Source of the DNA: a virus
Direction: 5' to 3' (one strand)
Virus record (IMG/VR): IMGVR_UViG_3300017963_000014
Location: 1 to 64,000 of that record
DNA length: 64,000 nt
Shown here: positions 4,645 through 13,136 of the stretch, piece after piece
Position numbering within the stretch: position 1 is the stretch's first letter
Layout: the number at the start of each line of letters is the position of its first letter
Notes under the pieces: generated by a model
Databases searched by the model: none
The model's input: the letters and a program-made list of their open reading frames with translations, nothing else
What the model was told of the DNA's origin: nothing
Made by a program: the position numbers and the translations under genes

Positions 4645-7512
4645 CTACCCCGCTCTATCCCGGATGCGCTTCGCCCGCGGAGCGCTACGGAGCTCCTCGA
4701 GGTCGGCCTCGAGGAGGATATCGCCCCTGTTCTCCCGGATCCGCGCGACCGCCTTCGAGACCCGCTTCGGGTCCGCGAGCCAGGTCCGGTAGCGGTCGAC
4801 GAGCTTCCGCCGACGAGCGCGACCCTTGATGAGCCACTTCGACCAGTCGATCACGGGGAAGCAGACCTCGAGGATCCGCTGCGAGGCGGGGAAGATCACG
4901 CGGTCCCAGTAGTACTCGGCGTCGTACGCGATCCCTCCGGCGGCGTCCTCGAAGTCACCCCGCGTTACGCCGGAGAGGTTCGGCTTCGTCCCGGTTACGA
5001 CGTACTCGACCTTCATTCCGACGTAGTACTCCCGCCCGGTCTCCCGAATCTCGGCCGCGAGCTTGACGTGCAGCGGCGTCGTCTTGTACCTCTCCGGGTC
5101 CTTCGATATCCCCTTCCCGATCGAGACCTCGTCGACGGAGAGCTCGCCCTCGGCGCAGCGTCGGAACTCCGGCTCGACGACCCCGCGCTCGATCTCGTCG
5201 CCCGAGAGTCCCTCCGTAAGGATCGCGTCCAGGACCCGCTGCTGGAGGCGGCGAGTCATCCCGGAGCAGTCGCTCCGCATCACCTCGAGGCCCTTAACCT
5301 CGACGTGATCCGTCTTCCCCCCCTTGTGGAGGAGCATCCTCCCGGCGTACCGCTTCTTAACGACGAAGAAGATCCGGTCGTAGACGTCCTCGAACTCGAG
5401 TTCGACCCGATTCCAGTCGAGGTTGCAGTTGAAGCCCCGGAGCTCCTCGAGGTAGCGCTCCTGGCAGTACGCGACGAAGCGGTTCCCGGCGTCGAGTATC
5501 TCCTCGATTCGGGCATCCTCGGAGGGCCAGGTCTTACCGGTCGGCGCGAGCTGAACGAAGACCGAGTCGGTGTCACCGTAGAGAACCGCGAACCCGTTCT
5601 CCTTCGCGTACCGCTCCGTTAGGCGGATGAAGTACCGCCCGCTGAGCGTGATCGCCTCCGCGAGCTCGGTGTCGTAGTACCGGGAGCGGGCGTTACCCAT
5701 GTCGCCGTAGAAGCTCAGCCCGAGGCGCTTGAACGAGTACGCGAGCCGGTAGTAGAGGAGGTAAAGGTCGTCCTGCGTCGTCCCGACCTCCTCGAGCCGC
5801 TTCCCCTGAAGGTCCGTGTACTTCTTCCGCCGCTCGAGCGTCCGGACGAACATCTGCGAGATATACCCCTCGCGGTCCCTCCGGAAGGTCGCGCCGCCCT
5901 TCTCGAGCGTCCCCCCGCCCTCGGTCTCGACCTCGACGAGGGGGCAGCGACAGAGCGAGTCCGGTCCGTTCTCCCGGAGGAACGCCTCGCGATCCTCGAG
6001 CTTGACGATCGTCTCGGGCGAGATGTTAAACGCTCGAACCATCGACGGGTAGAGACTCTTGAAATCTAAAGCCGCCACGTTCTCGTGCATCCCGACGACG
6101 GGGGGGAATACGTAGGCGCCCTCGTACTTCTCGGGCTCGGCGGAGGACCAGTACCGGGTCCGGAAGTGCTCCCCCTCCTTGTACCCCTTCTTTAGGAGGA
6201 GCTGGTCGATCTTCGTCGAGATGTTCCAGTCGTTCGCGAAGCCGTTCGCGATCCGGCAGAAGATCTGCTCGATCGAGACGAACCCCGTAAACTCCTCGAG
6301 CTTCCGGAGAATCCTCGCGTCGTACCGGTTATACTCCTCTAACAATTCGGGCTCGTACCGGTAGAGGTTGATAAACTTCGGTACCACCCCCGGGCGACGC
6401 TCACGGAAGGTCGTACGCCAGTCGATCTTCTGCATCTTCAGGACGCGCTCCCCGATCGAGTCGAGGGCGTAGGAGACGGCGTCCGCGCCCGCCCGCGTAT
6501 AATGCCGCTTGAAGACCGGTAGCGGGTCGGCGAAGAGGTGGTACCGCCAGTCGATCCAGATCCGGTGCTTCCGGAAGCGGTAGAAGATAACGGGAAAGTC
6601 GAATCCGAAACCGTTCCACGCGGCGAGGACGTCGTAGCGCTCGACGCACTCTCGCTTAAAGCGAAGGAGCATCTCCCGCTCGGCGGCGTCCGTCTCCTCC
6701 TCGAGTCGAAGGAACCCCGCGTCCGAGGGGTCGGAGTCGAAGCGGTCGCCCTCCCAGGCGATCGAGAGTATCCGGTTCTGCTCCTTCCTCTCGAACCCCC
6801 CGACGGTATCGTCGGTCTCGATGTCGAGAAACCCCATCCGGTACCGAGCCTGGATTTTTAAATCTACGTCCGTCAGGAACCGCTGCTTCGGCGTTAGGTC
6901 CGCCTCGAGAGGCTCAAGACCCTTCCGACGACACCACTCGACCGCCTCGTGAACAGGCTCCCACCGGTCGCGATCTCGGGGGAAGCGGAGCGCGCCCGGT
7001 CGCTCGCCGAGGAAGTAGGGGGTCGCCCAGCTAGAGGCGCGGTCGGGGTCCCCGACGTTCCGGAAGATCCGCTTGTGATCGATCTTCGGAACCCTCCGCG
7101 AGACGTAGACCCGTACGAACCTCTCGGGGTAGAGCGCGTCGGGCTCGACCCGCCGGGCGTGCCGACGGCAGAGCCAGTCCCAGCTCTCGCTCGGGATCCT
7201 CTCGAACTCCTCCCGCCGGAGGAGGAAGTACCACTCGAAGGGGTGAACCTCCTTAACCCGCCTCCCCGTCGCGGGGTCGCGGCGGAGGAGGACGACGTCC
7301 TCGCCCTCGGACCAGCCGTGGTAGTACTCCTTATCGGAGAAAAAGAACCGCTGGTCCTTCATCTCCTCGAAGTCGGCCGCGCTCTCGAGGTCGACCTCGT
7401 CGCGCGAGTCCCGAACCTCCTTCGAGTCGATCTCCTGTACGTAGAACTTCCGCTTCTCCGCGCCCGCGCCGAAGTCCCCTGCGATCCCCTGAGTGTCGGC
7501 GTCCCCGATCAG
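4645..7512 (-). CDS. polB: Family B DNA polymerase with 3'-5' exonuclease
   Basis: ExoI LDIETD, ExoII WNGFGFD, ExoIII YNRYD, motif A DFKSLYPS, motif B KRLGLSFYG, motif C YGDTDS, KKRY. Start uncertain: CTG 7512 or ATG 7362. Confidence 0.93.
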   Translation of the reverse strand: MIGDADTQGIAGDFGAGAEKRKFYVQEIDSKEVRDSRDEVDLESAADFEEMKDQRFFFSDKEYYHGWSEGEDVVLLRRDPATGRRVKEVHPFEWYFLLRREEFERIPSESWDWLCRRHARRVEPDALYPERFVRVYVSRRVPKIDHKRIFRNVGDPDRASSWATPYFLGERPGALRFPRDRDRWEPVHEAVEWCRRKGLEPLEADLTPKQRFLTDVDLKIQARYRMGFLDIETDDTVGGFERKEQNRILSIAWEGDRFDSDPSDAGFLRLEEETDAAEREMLLRFKRECVERYDVLAAWNGFGFDFPVIFYRFRKHRIWIDWRYHLFADPLPVFKRHYTRAGADAVSYALDSIGERVLKMQKIDWRTTFRERRPGVVPKFINLYRYEPELLEEYNRYDARILRKLEEFTGFVSIEQIFCRIANGFANDWNISTKIDQLLLKKGYKEGEHFRTRYWSSAEPEKYEGAYVFPPVVGMHENVAALDFKSLYPSMVRAFNISPETIVKLEDREAFLRENGPDSLCRCPLVEVETEGGGTLEKGGATFRRDREGYISQMFVRTLERRKKYTDLQGKRLEEVGTTQDDLYLLYYRLAYSFKRLGLSFYGDMGNARSRYYDTELAEAITLSGRYFIRLTERYAKENGFAVLYGDTDSVFVQLAPTGKTWPSEDARIEEILDAGNRFVAYCQERYLEELRGFNCNLDWNRVELEFEDVYDRIFFVVKKRYAGRMLLHKGGKTDHVEVKGLEVMRSDCSGMTRRLQQRVLDAILTEGLSGDEIERGVVEPEFRRCAEGELSVDEVSIGKGISKDPERYKTTPLHVKLAAEIRETGREYYVGMKVEYVVTGTKPNLSGVTRGDFEDAAGGIAYDAEYYWDRVIFPASQRILEVCFPVIDWSKWLIKGRARRRKLVDRYRTWLADPKRVSKAVARIRENRGDILLEADLEELRSAPRAKRIRDRAG

Positions 7513-8108
7513 GGACGAGCCGGTTCGGAACCCCTCCCCCGGGGGAGGAGCGCCCTCCGCCAGTTCTCGGCCTCCGTCTCGAGGCGGGTCCACTTCCGGA
7601 GGGTCGCGTTCGGGTGCCGGAGGAGCGTCGCCTCCGCCGTCGTCCCCTCGACCGTCCTCCGGAGCCCGAAGTCGCTTAACCCGAGGGCGACGCCCGCCGC
7701 CCTCCCGAGGACGAGGACCGTCCGGAGGTTCGGGAGTTCGAGTAGTTCCCTTCGAAGGTACCGTTCGGCGCACGTCTCAAGCTCCATTGGGGTCGGGGCG
7801 CGGTTCCCGGGGGTCGCGCACTTCAGGGCGTTCGTCGCGTAGCATCGCCCGAGGTCGAGACCCGAGCGGTCGGCGAGCTCGAGGAAGGCCCGGGTCGAAC
7901 CAGTTAAGAGTACGGGTTCCCCGCCCCGCCTCCGGGTCTCCGCGAGGAGGGGGAGGAGGAAGCAGCCCTCGACCCCGTCCACGGCCCGCCGCGAGGGGTT
8001 GATCCCGACGACCACGACCTCCGCGTCGTCGGGTCCGACGCCGACGCAGCGGGGGAGGCCGGAGGAACCGAGGGTACAGGCTCGGCAGGGGCGGGGGTCG
8101 CACCTCAT
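7509..8108 (-). CDS. Uracil-DNA glycosylase superfamily protein (Fe-S type)
   Basis: CRAC, G.GP.DA.VVVVGINP, YATNALKC, NRAPTPMELETC, LVLGRAA, HP. Confidence 0.85.
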   Translation of the reverse strand: MRCDPRPCRACTLGSSGLPRCVGVGPDDAEVVVVGINPSRRAVDGVEGCFLLPLLAETRRRGGEPVLLTGSTRAFLELADRSGLDLGRCYATNALKCATPGNRAPTPMELETCAERYLRRELLELPNLRTVLVLGRAAGVALGLSDFGLRRTVEGTTAEATLLRHPNATLRKWTRLETEAENWRRALLPRGRGSEPARP

Positions 8109-8653
8109 CGTCCCCCGGTCTCGAGGTGCAGGCTCCCGACGAGGAGCGAGAGCCGCGTCCCCCCGAACCGGTCGGGTAGCCCGGAGACCGCCGCACCGGC
8201 GGCTGCGAGGTTCCCGAGGAGGTCGAGCGGGAGGAGCGGGGCGAGGCGCTCCGAGCGCATGTACGCGACGACCTCGAGGTAGGGGCGCCGGAGGAGCTGG
8301 ATCGCGGTCGGGCAGGCGGGCGGGGGGAGGACCGATACGATCCGACGCGAGCTCGGCTCCTCCCTCCCGATACGCGCCCTGAGATTCCCCGCGTGCCGGA
8401 CGTAGTCCGAAGCCTCCGTCCGGAAGCGCTCCGCGAACCCGACCCCGGGCTCGAGGAGGTCGAGGGCACGTAGGATCGACGGGAGGTCCTCGAAGTCTAG
8501 GACCCGCGGGACGATGTACCTAAACTCGACCCCGCAGTTCTCGACGTAAGTACGCCCATCTACGCAGACGGACTTCCCCGAGGCCCGAAGCTCGACCTCC
8601 TTCCCCCCCGCGAGGACGAGGAGGTCGCGAGCGAGGTCGAAGTTAGTAATCAT
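8105..8653 (-). CDS. Minimal thymidylate-synthase (ThyA)-fold enzyme, predicted dCMP-modifying
   Basis: SSRR, PAC (catalytic Cys), Q, YMRS, LPLD and GSLH align by eye to ThyA DSRR/PC/Q/YQRS/LPFN/GDTH. Confidence 0.7.
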   Translation of the reverse strand: MITNFDLARDLLVLAGGKEVELRASGKSVCVDGRTYVENCGVEFRYIVPRVLDFEDLPSILRALDLLEPGVGFAERFRTEASDYVRHAGNLRARIGREEPSSRRIVSVLPPPACPTAIQLLRRPYLEVVAYMRSERLAPLLPLDLLGNLAAAGAAVSGLPDRFGGTRLSLLVGSLHLETGGR

Positions 8654-9657
8654 CGATTACGCCCCCGACCCTCGGCGAGCTTCTCGGCGTTCCCCCACTC
8701 GTGTGTCGCCGGGGGATCCCCCCGCTCGAGCGCCTTGAGTAACCCGAAGTATTCCCGACGAATCTCCCGCTCGAGGTCGACCTCGGGAAGATCGAGCCGC
8801 TCGCGAACCGCCGCGACCTCCTCGAGGTCGTGTACGAAGTCCCCGAGGTAATCGAGGTCGGGTCGGTAGACCGGGGAGATCGGGACGTCGGAGACGAAGC
8901 GGACGATATCGACGATCTGTCCGTAAGGAAGCCAGCGACCGGAGGCGGCGGGGACTCGACCGGAGAGCCGGACCTCGACCGCGCGGCGGACGAGGAGCGA
9001 TATCCAGGAGTGCGGCGTAACCTCCTTAACGTTCGCGGGGCTAAGGGTGATAAAGGGCTCCCGCTCGTAGAGTCCGGCGGCGCACTTCAGGCAGTCGGCG
9101 ACGCAGGAGTCGCCGTCGCGGATCCCGCCGAAGCCAAACGAGGGGTAGACCTGCAGGAGGAGCTCCGGTTCCCGGGCGAAGGCGTCGACCGCGAAGAGCC
9201 GCCCGGCGAGCTTCGTCAGACCGTAGCGAGTCCGGGGGTTCGCGGGGGTTCGAGACATCGAGATCGGCTTCGCGAGTCCGTAGTCGTCGGGCGAGAGCTC
9301 GGAGGCGGTCGCGAGGAAGACCGTGTAGATCCTCCGCTCCGCTAGAATCCGCGCGAGATCGCGGGGAGCGGCGGCGTTGCAACTCCAGGTCTCCTCCGCG
9401 AGAGTCTCGCAGCGGGTCGTCCCGACGATCGCCCCGGAGTGAACGAAGACGTCCGGCTTCGGGTCGAGGGCGGCTAGCCACTCGAGGTAGCCCTCGCAGC
9501 GGAAGTCCGGCTCGAACTCGCCGGTCGAGGGACTACGCCAGAGTGCGAATAGACGACGATCGGTCGGAGGCTCGAGGCGCTCCCAGCCGAGGGAGGAGAA
9601 CTCGCGGTCGATCTCGCTACCTAGCATCCCGCTCGTACCGGTTACGACGTACCTCAT
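8650..9657 (-). CDS. NAD(P)-dependent NDP-sugar epimerase/reductase (extended SDR, RmlD/GalE-like)
   Basis: TGTSGMLG, PDVFVHSGA, catalytic YGLTK. Confidence 0.85.
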   Translation of the reverse strand: MRYVVTGTSGMLGSEIDREFSSLGWERLEPPTDRRLFALWRSPSTGEFEPDFRCEGYLEWLAALDPKPDVFVHSGAIVGTTRCETLAEETWSCNAAAPRDLARILAERRIYTVFLATASELSPDDYGLAKPISMSRTPANPRTRYGLTKLAGRLFAVDAFAREPELLLQVYPSFGFGGIRDGDSCVADCLKCAAGLYEREPFITLSPANVKEVTPHSWISLLVRRAVEVRLSGRVPAASGRWLPYGQIVDIVRFVSDVPISPVYRPDLDYLGDFVHDLEEVAAVRERLDLPEVDLEREIRREYFGLLKALERGDPPATHEWGNAEKLAEGRGRNR

Positions 9658-10142
9658 CTTCGGAAACCCTCCTCCCCGTTAACGTAGACGACGTCGACTA
9701 CACCGCCGACCCAGGCGAAGACCTCGTCGAACGCGAGAAACTCGGCGTTAAGTCGCCCGTATTCGATAACCTCCCCCCGTCGCTCGATCCGGTTCCGCGC
9801 GGTCTCGAGCGAACTCGTAACGCGGTAGATCTGCTCGACCTCCTCGAGCTGCTTCGCCCGCGCGGCCGGGTTCGCTAGAAACGCCGGGATCGGTCGCTCG
9901 AAGAGCTTGGCGAAGACGAGGGTCGAGACCCAGCCGCGGTCGGCGACGAGGTCGACCCGGGGCGCGAGCTGCTCGAGTAACGAGGCGTGCGCTACGTACC
10001 CCCCGATCCGCGTCTCCTCCGAGTCGAGGCGGAGCCGAACCTTCGCGAGGTCCTCGACGTACGGGATCCCGAGCCGCCGCGCGAGGAGGCGGGCGAACGT
10101 CGTCTTTCCGACCCCGTTCGGACCCTCGACGAGGTGAAGCAT
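9654..10142 (-). CDS. dNMP kinase (thymidylate-kinase-like)
   Basis: P-loop EGPNGVGKTT, DRGWVS, RIERRG lid. Confidence 0.8.
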   Translation of the reverse strand: MLHLVEGPNGVGKTTFARLLARRLGIPYVEDLAKVRLRLDSEETRIGGYVAHASLLEQLAPRVDLVADRGWVSTLVFAKLFERPIPAFLANPAARAKQLEEVEQIYRVTSSLETARNRIERRGEVIEYGRLNAEFLAFDEVFAWVGGVVDVVYVNGEEGFRR

Positions 10143-11242
10143 CAGAGCGCCCTCGGCGCGACCAAGTTCCCGGAGGCTCCTCGGGTAAATCCCGCGAACT
10201 GAGCCTCGTACTCGTTCCGCTCTACGATACTCTCCGGGGTATACCCGAGGAGGAAGCGGTCGCGGGTCGTGAGTCGGAAGTCCTCGGGTCGGTCCTCGCC
10301 CGCGGTCGGGATCCGGATCCCGAGCTGCGCCGCGATCGTCTCGCGGTCGGAACAGCTCTCGTTGAACTCCGCGTACTCGTAGTCGAGCTCGGGGTTCCCC
10401 GGGGCGCTTCGGACCGGGTTTCGACCGCAGCTACGGAAGAGGCAGCCGAAGGCCTCCGAGATCGCGTGAGCCCGGTGGTAACAGCAGGCGCCTACGAAGT
10501 CGCAGCGTGGGCGGAGATACGCGGCGAGGAGCGGGAAGGCGTCGGACTTCGCGAGGCGGTCGCGGAGGAGCCAGGCGACGGCGACGGTGTCCTCCGCCTC
10601 GGAGAAGGTCATCCGACGGGCGCAGAGGTTCTTAAGCGCCGCGTAGTTAACGGAGCAGACGAAGCGGTGAACGACCGAGATCGGGAGCGCCGTCCTCGCC
10701 TCCTGCCAGCTCCCGCGCCCGATCTCGACGATCCTCCGGTACACGAACTTCGCCTCCCTCGCGAGGGCTACGAGGTCCGAGAGTTTACCCGCGCTCCGGA
10801 ACGTCGCCTCGTGGAAGCGAAACGCGATGTCTAGGTGGTTGTTATCGCGGGTCCCCATCGACGCCGCGACGAACCCGAGGCGGGCGCGAACGATCTGGTC
10901 GAACGCCCACCTCGAGAGATTCTCGACCGAGAACGTAAACTTCGGCGCCTCGAGCGCGAGCGGTAGCGCCTGCCCCGCGAGAACCGCCCGAACGACCGCC
11001 TCCCGCGACTCGGGCGCGGCGTCCTCCCAGCGGTCGAGGGAGGAGGAGCTCCAAGTCCCCCAGGTCGCGGTCGCCATGCAGTACATCGCCTTATACGGGT
11101 TCACCGGTCCGTCGAGGAGGTCGACGCGAATCCCCTCGACCCCGCGGTAGAAGCGGGTCTCGAACGGCGGGGCGGAGGAGGGGGCGGTCCCCATCAGTTC
11201 GCGGAGGCGGGCTAGTTCGGCGACGCGGTTCTCGGTACTCAT
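10142..11242 (-). CDS. Divergent ThyX-fold flavoenzyme
   Basis: LE..KFTFSVENLSR....QIVRAR...TR, EARTALP, VNYAALKNLCARR, Cys-rich tail. Start moved to ATG 11242 (ATGA overlap, GGAGG upstream). Confidence 0.8.
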   Translation of the reverse strand: MSTENRVAELARLRELMGTAPSSAPPFETRFYRGVEGIRVDLLDGPVNPYKAMYCMATATWGTWSSSSLDRWEDAAPESREAVVRAVLAGQALPLALEAPKFTFSVENLSRWAFDQIVRARLGFVAASMGTRDNNHLDIAFRFHEATFRSAGKLSDLVALAREAKFVYRRIVEIGRGSWQEARTALPISVVHRFVCSVNYAALKNLCARRMTFSEAEDTVAVAWLLRDRLAKSDAFPLLAAYLRPRCDFVGACCYHRAHAISEAFGCLFRSCGRNPVRSAPGNPELDYEYAEFNESCSDRETIAAQLGIRIPTAGEDRPEDFRLTTRDRFLLGYTPESIVERNEYEAQFAGFTRGASGNLVAPRAL

Positions 11243-12216
11243 CTCTTCTTCCTCCCTTCGGCTAACTCGAGGACCACCGCGAGCGCCTCGCGCGGCCCGG
11301 GGACGCGGACGGCGCCGACGAGCTCTACCCCGGCGTTCGCCTCGCCCTCTACGAGGACGACCGGGACGCCGGCGGCGAGGACCTCGCGCGCGACCGCGGG
11401 GTCGTCCTCGACGACCGCGACGGTCCCGGGGAAGTCCCGGAGGATCCGCCGGTGTTTCTCCCGGTCGAAGAGGACGGCGTCCGCGCGGAGGGCGGAGCGG
11501 TTGAGCCACTCGAGCGTATCGGCGTAGATCCGGGATACCCTCCAGTAGGGGCGAGCGGAGAGGACGACCGCGGTTAGACCGGCGGCGCGGAGCCCGTCTA
11601 AGAGCTCCCGCGCCCCCTCCCGAACCCCCTGCTCACGCTTCGCCCCGCTCTCGCGGTAGCGGTCCTTTAAGTTCTGGTACCCGAGCGCCCCGAGCTCCCG
11701 TCGGAGCGCGGCGGTCGAGGAGAACACGAACTCGCCGGGAACCTCCCAGTCCTCGACGTCGAGGCGGGCCCAGTCAAGGAAGCAGCGGGGGTAGTCGTTA
11801 AGGACGCCGTCTAGGTCGACGGCGACGACCGGGTCCTCGGGGGAGAGCGCGCGGAGGCGGGCCTCCATCGCGTAGCGGTACTCGACGACCTCGCTCTTCC
11901 GCTCGAACTCCTCGAGGATCTCCCCGGGGGAGAACCCCCAGACGTTCGCGAGCCCGAGGAGGAACTTAAGGCAGTCGACCCACTCCTCGAGGACGTTCCC
12001 GCGGACGACCGGAGTAGTCCGCCGGTGGTGCATCTTCCAGGAGGTCTCGCCGAGTAGCTCGTGAAGCTCCCCCTCGAGGTGTAGGACGAAGTCCTTCGAC
12101 CACGCGACGCGCTCCGCCGGGGATAGCCGCGCGATCTCGTAGCCGAGGTCCGAGAAGAACCGCTCGTTGAACCGCCTCTGCCGCGCGAGGATCCCCTCGA
12201 GGGAGGTAGCCTTCAC
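11239..12216 (-). CDS. Fusion of all-alpha dNTP pyrophosphatase (dimeric dUTPase/dCTPase-like) and HAD 5'-nucleotidase
   Basis: N-terminal EGELHELLGETSWK...LEEWVDCLKF; C-terminal VDLDGVL, LSAR, K, VEDD. Start moved to GTG 12216 (GTGA overlap). Confidence 0.8.
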   Translation of the reverse strand: MKATSLEGILARQRRFNERFFSDLGYEIARLSPAERVAWSKDFVLHLEGELHELLGETSWKMHHRRTTPVVRGNVLEEWVDCLKFLLGLANVWGFSPGEILEEFERKSEVVEYRYAMEARLRALSPEDPVVAVDLDGVLNDYPRCFLDWARLDVEDWEVPGEFVFSSTAALRRELGALGYQNLKDRYRESGAKREQGVREGARELLDGLRAAGLTAVVLSARPYWRVSRIYADTLEWLNRSALRADAVLFDREKHRRILRDFPGTVAVVEDDPAVAREVLAAGVPVVLVEGEANAGVELVGAVRVPGPREALAVVLELAEGRKKR

Positions 12217-13136
12217 GAGAGAACCCCCGCGACGTCGTGTAACCGTATCCGGTGGTCCCACCTAGCGAACCTCCCGACGTGCCGGACGAGCCCCGCGTAC
12301 TCGACCTCCGACCGCGGCTCCCCCCGAACCTGGAGGCGGAGCGGCCCGACGAAGTTCGTATCGAAGACGTCCTCGCAGAACCCCGGCGCGAGGACCTCCG
12401 CGGGGTCGCGGTTAAACTCGTAGACGAACCCCTCCCCCTCCGGGAGGAAGGTGACGCGATCGAAGGGGACGCGCGGGTTAGAGACGTAGAGGTAGCGGAG
12501 ACCGGCGGAGGCGGCGTCCCGGACGGGGTCGGCCCAGGCGCGGGCGGCCCCGAGGAACCACTTCGGGCCGGCGTCCCAGGTCCGCTCGAGCTTAGCCGGC
12601 GTTAGCGAGTCGAAGACGGGCGCGGGGAGCGTGTTGACGACCTCCGAGACCGGCAACTTACTAACCCCGTCGAGCTCGACGTCTACCCGTCGCTGAAGTA
12701 TCCAGGGCGCGATGGACGTGACGCGCGCACGGAGTAGCTCGGAACGGACCGTTAGCGCGCGCTCGAGCGCCCGCGTAAGCTCCTCTACCGAGGTACGGAA
12801 GCAGCGGAGGACGCCGGGGGTACCGGAGGAGACCGCGGATCTCGGCGCCCGGCTAGGGTCCCGTCCGCTCCGCCGGAGGTACTCCCGCCGCTCGAGCGGC
12901 GTCGGGTCGGAAGTAACACCGGAGTCGGTCCAGAACCCGAAGCGGACCTCCTCGACCTCGCTCGATAGCCCGAGGTCCTCGAGGACGCGCCCGAGCGCGA
13001 GGGACTCCCAGAGGTAGGAGGGGGCGAGTCGTCGGAGGAGGACGGAACCGCCGAAGATCTCGCCAACGCAGGGGACGCGGAGGAGGTACGCCGCGAGGAG
13101 GCCGACGGGTCCGGCGCCGAGGACGAGTCGACTCAT
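12213..13136 (-). CDS. FAD-dependent enzyme, UDP-galactopyranose mutase (Glf)/HemY-like
   Basis: GAGPVG dinucleotide fold, VVNTLP, PFDRVT, C-terminal GRFARW. Confidence 0.65.
   Translation of the reverse strand: MSRLVLGAGPVGLLAAYLLRVPCVGEIFGGSVLLRRLAPSYLWESLALGRVLEDLGLSSEVEEVRFGFWTDSGVTSDPTPLERREYLRRSGRDPSRAPRSAVSSGTPGVLRCFRTSVEELTRALERALTVRSELLRARVTSIAPWILQRRVDVELDGVSKLPVSEVVNTLPAPVFDSLTPAKLERTWDAGPKWFLGAARAWADPVRDAASAGLRYLYVSNPRVPFDRVTFLPEGEGFVYEFNRDPAEVLAPGFCEDVFDTNFVGPLRLQVRGEPRSEVEYAGLVRHVGRFARWDHRIRLHDVAGVLS

Follow-up and report, generated by a model that had tools for sequence, protein, structure and literature searches.

We analysed the first 64 kb of a complete, 101,796-bp uncultured virus record with direct terminal repeats (IMG/VR record IMGVR_UViG_3300017963_000014; this 64,000-nucleotide stretch is called the window here) and found that its gene P0001 (10142–11242, minus strand; 366 aa) encodes a predicted ThyX-fold protein in which the signature of flavin-dependent thymidylate synthase (ThyX, or FDTS) has been rewritten. 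With moderate confidence, we read P0001 as a neofunctionalised ThyX-fold flavoenzyme that makes a non-canonical, C5-modified deoxynucleoside monophosphate (dNMP) of the uracil type, not ordinary deoxythymidine monophosphate (dTMP). The part of this reading that we observed is the fold, the residue pattern and its conservation, the synteny of the surrounding gene cassette and the co-occurrence with canonical ThyX.

P0001 is predicted to have the ThyX fold

The Pfam Thy1 model (PF02511) matches residues 47–231 of P0001 with an E-value of 4.8e-11 and 43.2 bits, against a gathering cut-off of 24.8, and the protein fails the TIGR02170 thyX equivalog model (27.4 bits vs a cut-off of 87.9). No PHROGs family matches P0001, and phmmer with P0001 alone against PDB sequences gave no match at E ≤ 1. 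The family profile did reach solved ThyX proteins, namely those of M. tuberculosis (Mtb; 3gwc, E 5e-10) and T. maritima (Tm; 3g4c/1kq4, E 2e-7). An AlphaFold2 model of P0001 built from 95 homologs has a predicted local distance difference test (pLDDT) score of 94 and a predicted template modelling (pTM) score of 0.93. With this model, Foldseek returned ThyX at probability 1.0 and 16–19% identity, VIA gave Z scores of 15–17.3 with root-mean-square deviations (rmsd) of 2.3–2.8 Å over ~200–210 residues, and the top structural matches were all ThyX proteins or the ThyX paralog PolB. On the strength of this model we are confident that P0001 has the ThyX fold. Compared with the characterised enzymes (EC 2.1.1.148; TM0449, PDB 1O26; Rv2754c, PDB 3GWC; PF02511), the fold is shared across the whole catalytic domain (Z 16–17, rmsd 2.3–2.8 Å, ~205 residues), but identity is only 16–19%, and the signature, the N-terminal helix and the Cys tail all differ.

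The nucleotide grip is kept and the folate side is lost

Canonical ThyX carries the motif H-Q/E-x-x-R-H-R-x7-S-x-R-Y. The corresponding stretch of P0001 (10844–10900, minus strand) is D115-Q-x-x-R119-A-R121-x8-G130-T-R132-D133, in full F114-D115-Q116-I-V-R119-A120-R121, eight residues and then G130-T131-R132-D133, and the substrate loop is one residue longer than in ThyX. The upstream GHxSxxEH segment is degenerate (G90-QALPLALE98-A99; 10946–10975, minus strand), with Glu98 kept and both histidines lost. A first-pass annotation of this DNA had given the two stretches as DQIVRAR-x8-GTRD and GQALPLALEA, and they read exactly so.

We took residue equivalences from a family-profile alignment to solved ThyX sequences and counted conservation over the 95 homologs, which are 30–76% identical. 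Upstream of the motif, R111 corresponds to Mtb R87, E98 to Tm E52 and A99 to Tm His53, and D115 occupies the position of Mtb His91. Within the motif, R119, A120 and R121 correspond to Tm R78, H79 and R80, G130 to Ser88, R132 to Arg90 and D133 to Tyr91; downstream, R183 corresponds to Tm Arg147 (Mtb R172) and R210 to Tm Arg174. The arginines that hold deoxyuridine monophosphate (dUMP) in the Mtb enzyme (R87, R95, R107 and R199, plus R172) are all present in P0001, as R111, R119, R132, R210 and R183, respectively.

R111, R121, R183, R210, E98, G130 and W61 are invariant in all 95 sequences; D115, D133 and R119 are each found in 93, N134 is found in 90, and position 132 is Arg in 89 and Lys in 4. 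Position 120 (Tm His79) is A, Q, T or S in the clade and never conserved as His, and position 99 (Tm His53) is A, S, V or T. Glu86 and His47 of ThyX are replaced in the family by Ser/Ala and by Leu, respectively, and the equivalents of Asn163 and Asn169 are retained. The profile alignment thus agrees with the earlier claim that H53, H79, S88 and Y91 are lost, changes that are fixed across the 95 homologs, and with the claim that the equivalents of R78, R80, R90, R147 and R174 are retained, these being invariant or nearly so.

Methyl transfer by ThyX depends critically on the strictly conserved Ser88 and Tyr91 and on His53, to which Tyr91 hydrogen-bonds; mutation of Tyr91 slows flavin oxidation ~1000-fold, and Arg174 activates dUMP (PMC8316439, PMC11940539). 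The Tyr lid keeps solvent off uracil C5 and flavin N5, and four arginines and a Ser hold dUMP (PMC6514825). The PolB structure shows uracil O4 bonded by the SxRY Arg and O2 by the counterpart of Arg174, with Glu94 bonded to O3' of the ribose (PMC5003785). The P0001 family has Ser/Ala for this Glu but keeps both base-contacting arginines (R132 and R210). By this alignment, the protein has therefore preserved the grip on phosphate and base that a uracil-type nucleotide needs, and the residues specific to folate stacking and to the carbinolamine are gone.

The rewired proteins form a single viral clade

A word-indexed protein search found 109 homologs, mostly on metagenomic contigs of up to ~110 kb, and those with names carry the automatic label 'thymidylate synthase ThyX'. 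An exhaustive search of 1.84 billion representatives returned just 194 proteins at E ≤ 1e-3, and the Atlas clusters of the family are 86–97% viruses. A tblastn search of P0001 against 50,697 deposited phage genomes gave no match at 1e-3, and therefore no cultured host or phage is at hand. Profile scanning of one genome each for 185,579 species, with a 20-sequence alignment, found homologs on six contigs of metagenome-assembled genomes only. To judge from the sequences retrieved, the rewired ThyX-like clade is virus-only.

Phylogenetic analysis of 123 Thy1-fold sequences placed the DQ..GxRD type in a single clade (59 rows, support 100); canonical ThyX and other rewired groups, among them an HQ..RTR..GGRD group, lie outside it. 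P0001 has the full clade signature (D115-Q116, R119-x-R121, G130-x-R132-D133-N134, W61, W72 and E98) and the clade tail (C247, C253, C272, C297, D248 and R274). The first-pass annotation had proposed collecting RAR/GTRD-type homologs with their neighbourhoods; across the 95 homologs aligned and the 26 loci compared, the changes are fixed and the cassette is conserved.

The clade has also gained structural elements, namely an N-terminal helix, the invariant residues W61, W72, D115, E215 and D218, and a C-terminal extension of ~135 residues that is modelled at pLDDT ~80–98. The Cys-rich part of this extension (10352–10504, minus strand) contains C247, C253, C272 and C297, which are present in 90, 89, 89 and 80 of the 95 homologs, together with D248, H256 and R274. 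In a few members the tail cysteines are jointly replaced, often by Asp. This joint pattern of conservation and loss suggests that the Cys4 tail is probably a metal site (Zn or Fe-S).

In one homolog (P0063), an intein (Pfam PF14890) interrupts the protein immediately ahead of the S-x-G-x-R-D loop. Inteins typically insert at functionally critical sites. Five long homologs (P0111, P0114, P0115, P0134 and P0151) match in two stretches and may carry the same insertion.

Canonical ThyX coexists with the rewired paralog in five of ten related genomes

We searched ten large related contigs (G001–G010) for Thy1 and ThyA and found a second Thy1 gene in five of them (G001, G003, G004, G008 and G009), including both nearest relatives of the phage (63–66% identity). 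The second genes score 97–163 bits, compared with 42–74 bits for the ThyX-like genes of the ten contigs, and all five have the canonical RHR-x7-SxR[YF] motif. The full GHE..EH-type segment is present in four of the five; the G009 copy reads GHHAMIEF, without the second His. The Pfam match of this G009 gene (L040:179-889) ends at position 153, and the sequence diverges after an ARAVLP motif; it may be a truncated, decaying or recombined copy. The retention of canonical ThyX beside the paralog in more than one lineage speaks for a different function of the paralog.

P0001 lies in a conserved gene cassette

We clustered the open reading frames (ORFs) of 26 loci, comprising 25 IMG/VR loci (±8 kb stretches) and the window, and found a same-strand cassette in all 26, in phages with PolA, PolB or PolIII-alpha polymerases and with high or low GC content. 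In the window, all members lie on one strand with overlapping stops and starts. The translationally coupled upstream neighbour of P0001 encodes a MazG/dimeric-dUTPase-like nucleoside triphosphate (NTP) pyrophosphatase fused to a DxDGV phosphatase of the haloacid dehalogenase (HAD) type (11239–12261, minus strand; Pfam dUTPase_2 E 4.6e-6, PHROG 173/415). Its homologs occur in 23 of the 26 loci, with both sets of active-site motifs conserved in the alignment, and the two domains are split in one locus (L007). Next to it is a small GxGxxG flavoprotein, ORF307 (12213–13136, minus strand), that or a divergent homolog of which is found in 23/26 loci. Its AlphaFold2 model (pLDDT 90) has a UDP-galactopyranose mutase (UGM)/renalase/amine-oxidase fold, and these three kinds of protein are its top Foldseek matches. 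On the other side of P0001 is a small P-loop gene resembling dNMP or deoxynucleoside kinases (9654–10142, minus strand; PHROG 761 thymidylate kinase E 2.5e-10, Pfam dNK/Thymidylate_kin weak). This kinase type forms one cluster in 16 loci, and the window and L002 have divergent copies; at least 17 related loci have an equivalent small kinase.

The remaining members are more variable. An RmlD/epimerase-type short-chain dehydrogenase/reductase (SDR; 8650–9657, minus strand) is an accessory gene with homologs in 11 of the 26 loci, that of L004 matching RmlD_sub_bind at E 1e-25. Another accessory gene (8105–8653, minus strand) encodes a mini ThyA-fold protein of 182 aa with the shared motifs SRR..C..RS.D/E..GS.H. 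Genes of this kind are found in 12 loci including the window and are absent within ±8 kb at the other 14; Pfam PF00303 core matches lie beside the ThyX-like genes of G007 and G009. The mini ThyA-fold genes encode 137–244 aa and fall into two sequence types (for example L009:9180-9728 and L003:3205-3684), both of which are present in L010. Both types share SRR..C..RS.D..GS.H.Y, and the window copy reads RSER at RS.D. A deoxycytidine monophosphate (dCMP) deaminase is part of the cassette at 8 loci.

Next comes a protein with a family-4-like uracil-DNA glycosylase (UDG) domain (7509–8108, minus strand; Pfam UDG E 2.7e-13), and a family B DNA polymerase identified with Pfam (4645–7773, minus strand) closes the cassette. 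The UDG-like gene is free-standing beside PolB in the window, and in relatives the domain is fused to the C-terminus of PolA or the N-terminus of PolIII-alpha (L004:8929-11328, L003:4129-7929 and L019:4098-4658 examined). Since this domain is either fused to PolA or PolIII-alpha or located beside PolB, the cassette travels with three replicative polymerase families.

In the closest relative, L002, the order is flavoprotein, MazG–HAD, ThyX-like, kinase, UDG and PolB, without SDR or mini ThyA, which indicates that the SDR and mini ThyA-fold genes are additions in the window. The L002 polymerase gene (L002:9912-14375) encodes a 1487-aa PolB that carries a large, intein-like insertion. In the AT-rich relative L009, an aldo-keto reductase and a radical SAM/SPASM enzyme (L009:5548-7632) lie between the kinase and the ThyX-like gene, a place comparable to that of the RmlD-type SDR in the window. 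These enzymes and the window SDR look like variable tailoring enzymes.

Gene boundaries and genome setting

P0001 consists of an N-terminal helix (residues 1–30), the Thy1/ThyX fold (~30–232) and the C-terminal extension (233–366). A longer, GTG-started ORF surrounds it (10142–11509, minus strand). We place the true start at the ATG at 11242, because this ATG overlaps the upstream stop (ATGA), follows a GGGAGG Shine–Dalgarno sequence and agrees with the homolog N-termini. The stop codon in turn overlaps the ATG of the next gene (TGATG), and the gene thus appears to be translationally coupled on both sides. The 89 open codons upstream of the start (11243–11509, minus strand) would encode an Arg/Pro/Gly-rich peptide and overlap the end of the MazG–HAD gene. 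The homologs lack this Arg/Pro-rich stretch, which is most likely a non-coding artefact of GC-rich sequence.

The window has a GC content of ~69%, and assembled contigs in public runs place the source stretch in sediment and seawater metagenomes. Outside the window, the same phage genome (G000) encodes a dCMP deaminase of 264 aa (87875–88669, minus strand) and a TSCPD-domain ribonucleotide reductase of class II (B12-type; 89540–92284, minus strand). With these two enzymes encoded, the phage would run its own supply of pyrimidine deoxynucleoside triphosphates (dNTPs).

Proposed function and alternatives

With Ser88, Tyr91 and the folate-side His53 gone, the canonical route of reductive methylation, from folate through flavin N5 to dUMP, would be impossible in P0001. 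We propose that the protein instead holds a (deoxy)nucleoside monophosphate with a pyrimidine base of the uracil type, which it probably stacks on a flavin as ThyX does, and performs a different C5 transformation, the most likely product being 5-hydroxymethyl- or 5-hydroxy-dUMP. We infer flavin binding, substrate and product, as well as the metal site and the roles of the partners, from the pattern described above. Asp133, in place of the solvent-excluding Tyr lid, could be the general base in a reaction with water or oxygen. The logic of the cassette would be like that of T4 gp56/gp42/gp1. The MazG domain would convert a dNTP to the dNMP substrate and deplete the competing dNTP, and the kinase, whose start overlaps the end of P0001, would re-phosphorylate the modified dNMP so that the phage polymerase could use it. 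Electrons would be supplied or removed by the UGM/renalase-like flavoprotein and the Cys4 tail site, which are best read together as an electron path. The loss of His53, Ser88 and Tyr91 points about equally to hydroxymethylation and to folate-independent chemistry, meaning hydroxylation or dTMP oxidation.

A more specific idea, to which we assign a low probability, is that P0001 does folate-independent flavin chemistry that is not known for the ThyX fold. In one version the last step of ThyX would run in reverse, a hydride passing from the C5-methyl group of dTMP to oxidised flavin to give an exocyclic methylene; water activated by Asp133 would then add to yield 5-hydroxymethyl-dUMP, and the partner flavoprotein would receive the electrons by way of the Cys4 site. 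Vanillyl-alcohol oxidase and p-cresol methylhydroxylase, with their quinone-methide chemistry, offer a parallel for such a reaction. This version would explain why all the residues for folate and the carbinolamine are lost, why canonical ThyX coexists with the paralog and why there is a pyrophosphatase that converts dTTP to dTMP. In the other version, C5 of dUMP would condense with a flavin-N5 adduct (a UGM-like iminium) of an aldehyde larger than formaldehyde, and this would be the beginning of a polyhydroxyalkyl side chain like that of SP-15 DNA.

The first-pass annotation had held that P0001 binds FAD and a pyrimidine nucleotide but does other chemistry. The part about other chemistry gains support from the canonical ThyX in 5 of 10 relatives, from the nucleotide-pool cassette and from the lost Ser88, Tyr91 and His53; the part about the flavin is less secure. 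P0001 retains counterparts of Arg78/Arg80, Asn163 and Asn169, but the equivalents of His79, Arg165 and His178 are lost, the latter two of which we take to be flavin contacts in the T. maritima structure, and this makes flavin binding itself uncertain. Other observations also weigh against the production of a modified nucleotide. P0001 is the only full-size thymidylate-synthase-like gene in the complete phage genome, in which we found no Pfam ThyA and no second Thy1 gene, and the ThyX-like gene is likewise alone in G002, G005, G006, G007 and G010. A phage with a dCMP deaminase but no dTMP synthase would be explained most simply if P0001 still made dTMP. In addition, MazG–HAD as a destroyer of dTTP conflicts with the presence of canonical ThyX in some relatives, and our literature searches turned up no characterised ThyX-like hydroxymethylase or hydroxylase and no experimental work on any rewired ThyX.

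P0001 might thus remain a dTMP synthase that has diverged from other ThyX proteins but arrives at their product by means of substitute residues. For example, Asp133 would stand in for the Tyr and Ser acids, free formaldehyde or another one-carbon donor would replace stacked folate, and electrons would come from the flavoprotein via the Cys4 site. The solitary ThyX-like genes just described are the chief argument for this view, which also accords with a Pfam Thy1 score above the gathering threshold and with the retention of every dUMP-binding arginine, and ThyX can use free formaldehyde without folate (PMC8316439). On the other hand, mutations of Ser88, Tyr91 and His53 cripple ThyX, the score lies far under the thyX equivalog cut-off, and canonical ThyX is also present in five related genomes from independent lineages, which would be unexpected for redundant enzymes. 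We consider continued dTMP synthesis unlikely. The modification of a cytosine nucleotide seems to us more doubtful still. P0001 would then be a ThyX-fold analogue of T4 gp42 that converts dCMP to 5-methyl-, 5-hydroxymethyl- or 5-hydroxy-dCMP, with MazG as the dCTPase and the new Asp residues reading N4 or protonating N3. The gene set does match that of T4 (canonical thymidylate synthase, a paralog of it, a dCTPase-type MazG, a dNMP kinase and a dCMP deaminase), D115 and D133 are new invariant acidic residues in the substrate loop, and in ThyA an Asn177-to-Asp change switches specificity to dCMP (PMC13326640). However, P0001 keeps both the O4-bonding Arg (R132, equivalent to PolB R98') and the O2-binding Arg that activates N3-H (R210, equivalent to Tm R174), which suits uracil or thymine better than cytosine. 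It would be unfavourable to have an Arg opposite the N4 amino group, and the phage dCMP deaminase makes dUMP. The earlier suggestion that the new Asp residues suit cytosine is accordingly weakened by R132, R210 and the deaminase; the T4 analogy does speak for it.

It is also conceivable that P0001 does not modify a base at all. It would then be either a redox partner whose NAD(P)H:flavin reductase activity supplies reduced flavin to the mini ThyA-fold enzyme, by analogy with the flavin/O2-dependent 5-hydroxy-dCMP synthases, or a non-catalytic nucleotide-sensing subunit. ThyX enzymes do have NAD(P)H oxidase activity, and a mini ThyA-fold gene shares the operon here and at 11 other loci. ThyA-fold 5-hydroxy-dCMP synthases need reduced flavin (PMC13326640). 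However, 14 of the 26 ThyX-like loci have no such gene within ±8 kb, a flavin reductase would not need the five near-invariant nucleotide-binding arginines, and the intein sits at the substrate loop. On these three grounds we rejected a simple flavin reductase for the mini ThyA-fold enzyme as the main explanation, and regard the absence of base modification as very improbable. The synthesis of a C5-modified uracil-type nucleotide remains the reading that we prefer.

Comparison with known systems

The polyoxin enzyme PolB of Streptomyces cacaoi, a UMP/dUMP C5-methylase (PDB 4P5A/4P5B; PMC5003785), matches the P0001 model structurally on a par with ThyX (Z 16.8) and is likewise a ThyX paralog, recruited to a secondary pathway beside a housekeeping ThyX. 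It differs in that its own ThyX motif is intact (Ser96, Arg98 and Tyr99) and it still methylates, with thymidylate synthase activity, only its substrate range having been changed via two loops (PMC5003785). PolB-type enzymes combine the intact motif with Tyr124 and Tyr126 of Loop 1; P0001 fails the PolB-type motif, its Ser and Tyr being replaced.

Bacillus phage SP-15, whose DNA contains 5-dihydroxypentyluracil, encodes a second Thy1-family protein, gp130, hypothesised to be a hydroxymethyl-dUMP synthase (Kropinski et al. 2018, PMC5977210). SP-15 is thus also a phage with two Thy1-fold genes, one of them proposed to make a modified dUMP, and gp130 is a weak structural match to the P0001 model (BFVD rank 15, E 1.5e-6). 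It has none of the DQ..RxR..GxRD or Cys-tail motifs, however, and no tblastn similarity to P0001. The P0001 clade is a rewired relative of known ThyX, and the gp130 hypothesis is the sole precedent for the idea in print (PMC5977210).

ORF59 of Pseudomonas phage 14-1, a Pbunavirus 'FAD-dependent thymidylate synthase' (L032:5848-6765), is rewired too, with THQLVRTR, ETSRA and no folate-side His. It resembles the P0001 family in the P-x-C-x5-C start of its tail, in its location beside a polymerase module and in an hhalign probability of 97.7%, but it belongs to a separate clade, in which the positions of D115, G130 and the ThyX Tyr are occupied by His, Ser and Ala, respectively. Pbunavirus DNA carries sugar-like thymidine hypermodifications for which the responsible genes have not been assigned (PMC12191111). 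We considered whether phage 14-1 has the same cassette and rejected this, as its ORF66 gave no match to the flavoprotein and its ORF57 only a weak one to the HAD domain. The Pbunavirus thymidine mark is therefore not transferable to the P0001 family.

The ThyA-fold phage paralogs (T4 gp42, the SPO1-type dUMP hydroxymethylase and the 5-hydroxy-dCMP synthases RB69 gp48 and DLP3 gp80; PMC13326640) follow the pathway logic proposed here, in which the phage polymerase receives a modified dNTP through the joint work of a thymidylate synthase paralog, an NTP pyrophosphatase and a dNMP kinase. In ThyA, a change of the hydrophobic, water-excluding L143 to D/E separates hydroxymethylases from methylases (PMC13326640), which parallels the replacement of the Tyr lid by Asp in P0001. 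The folds are unrelated, however, and P0001 is without the catalytic-cysteine mechanism.

Implications

To our knowledge, every known pre-replicative pyrimidine modification of phage DNA (5-hydroxymethylcytosine, 5-hydroxymethyluracil, 5-methylcytosine and 5-hydroxycytosine) starts with a ThyA-fold paralog. If our preferred reading of P0001 is true, a ThyX-fold enzyme would be a second, independent origin of such modification, probably with new flavin chemistry. As a small protein with a high-confidence predicted model, P0001 is amenable to the in vivo assay published for the 5-hydroxy-dCMP synthases. Because members of the clade are automatically labelled 'thymidylate synthase ThyX', viromes are probably mis-scored for both dTMP synthesis and DNA modification. 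The cassette is widespread in uncultured phages with three polymerase families, and its presence could flag DNA that is refractory to restriction, to CRISPR or to detection by sequencing.

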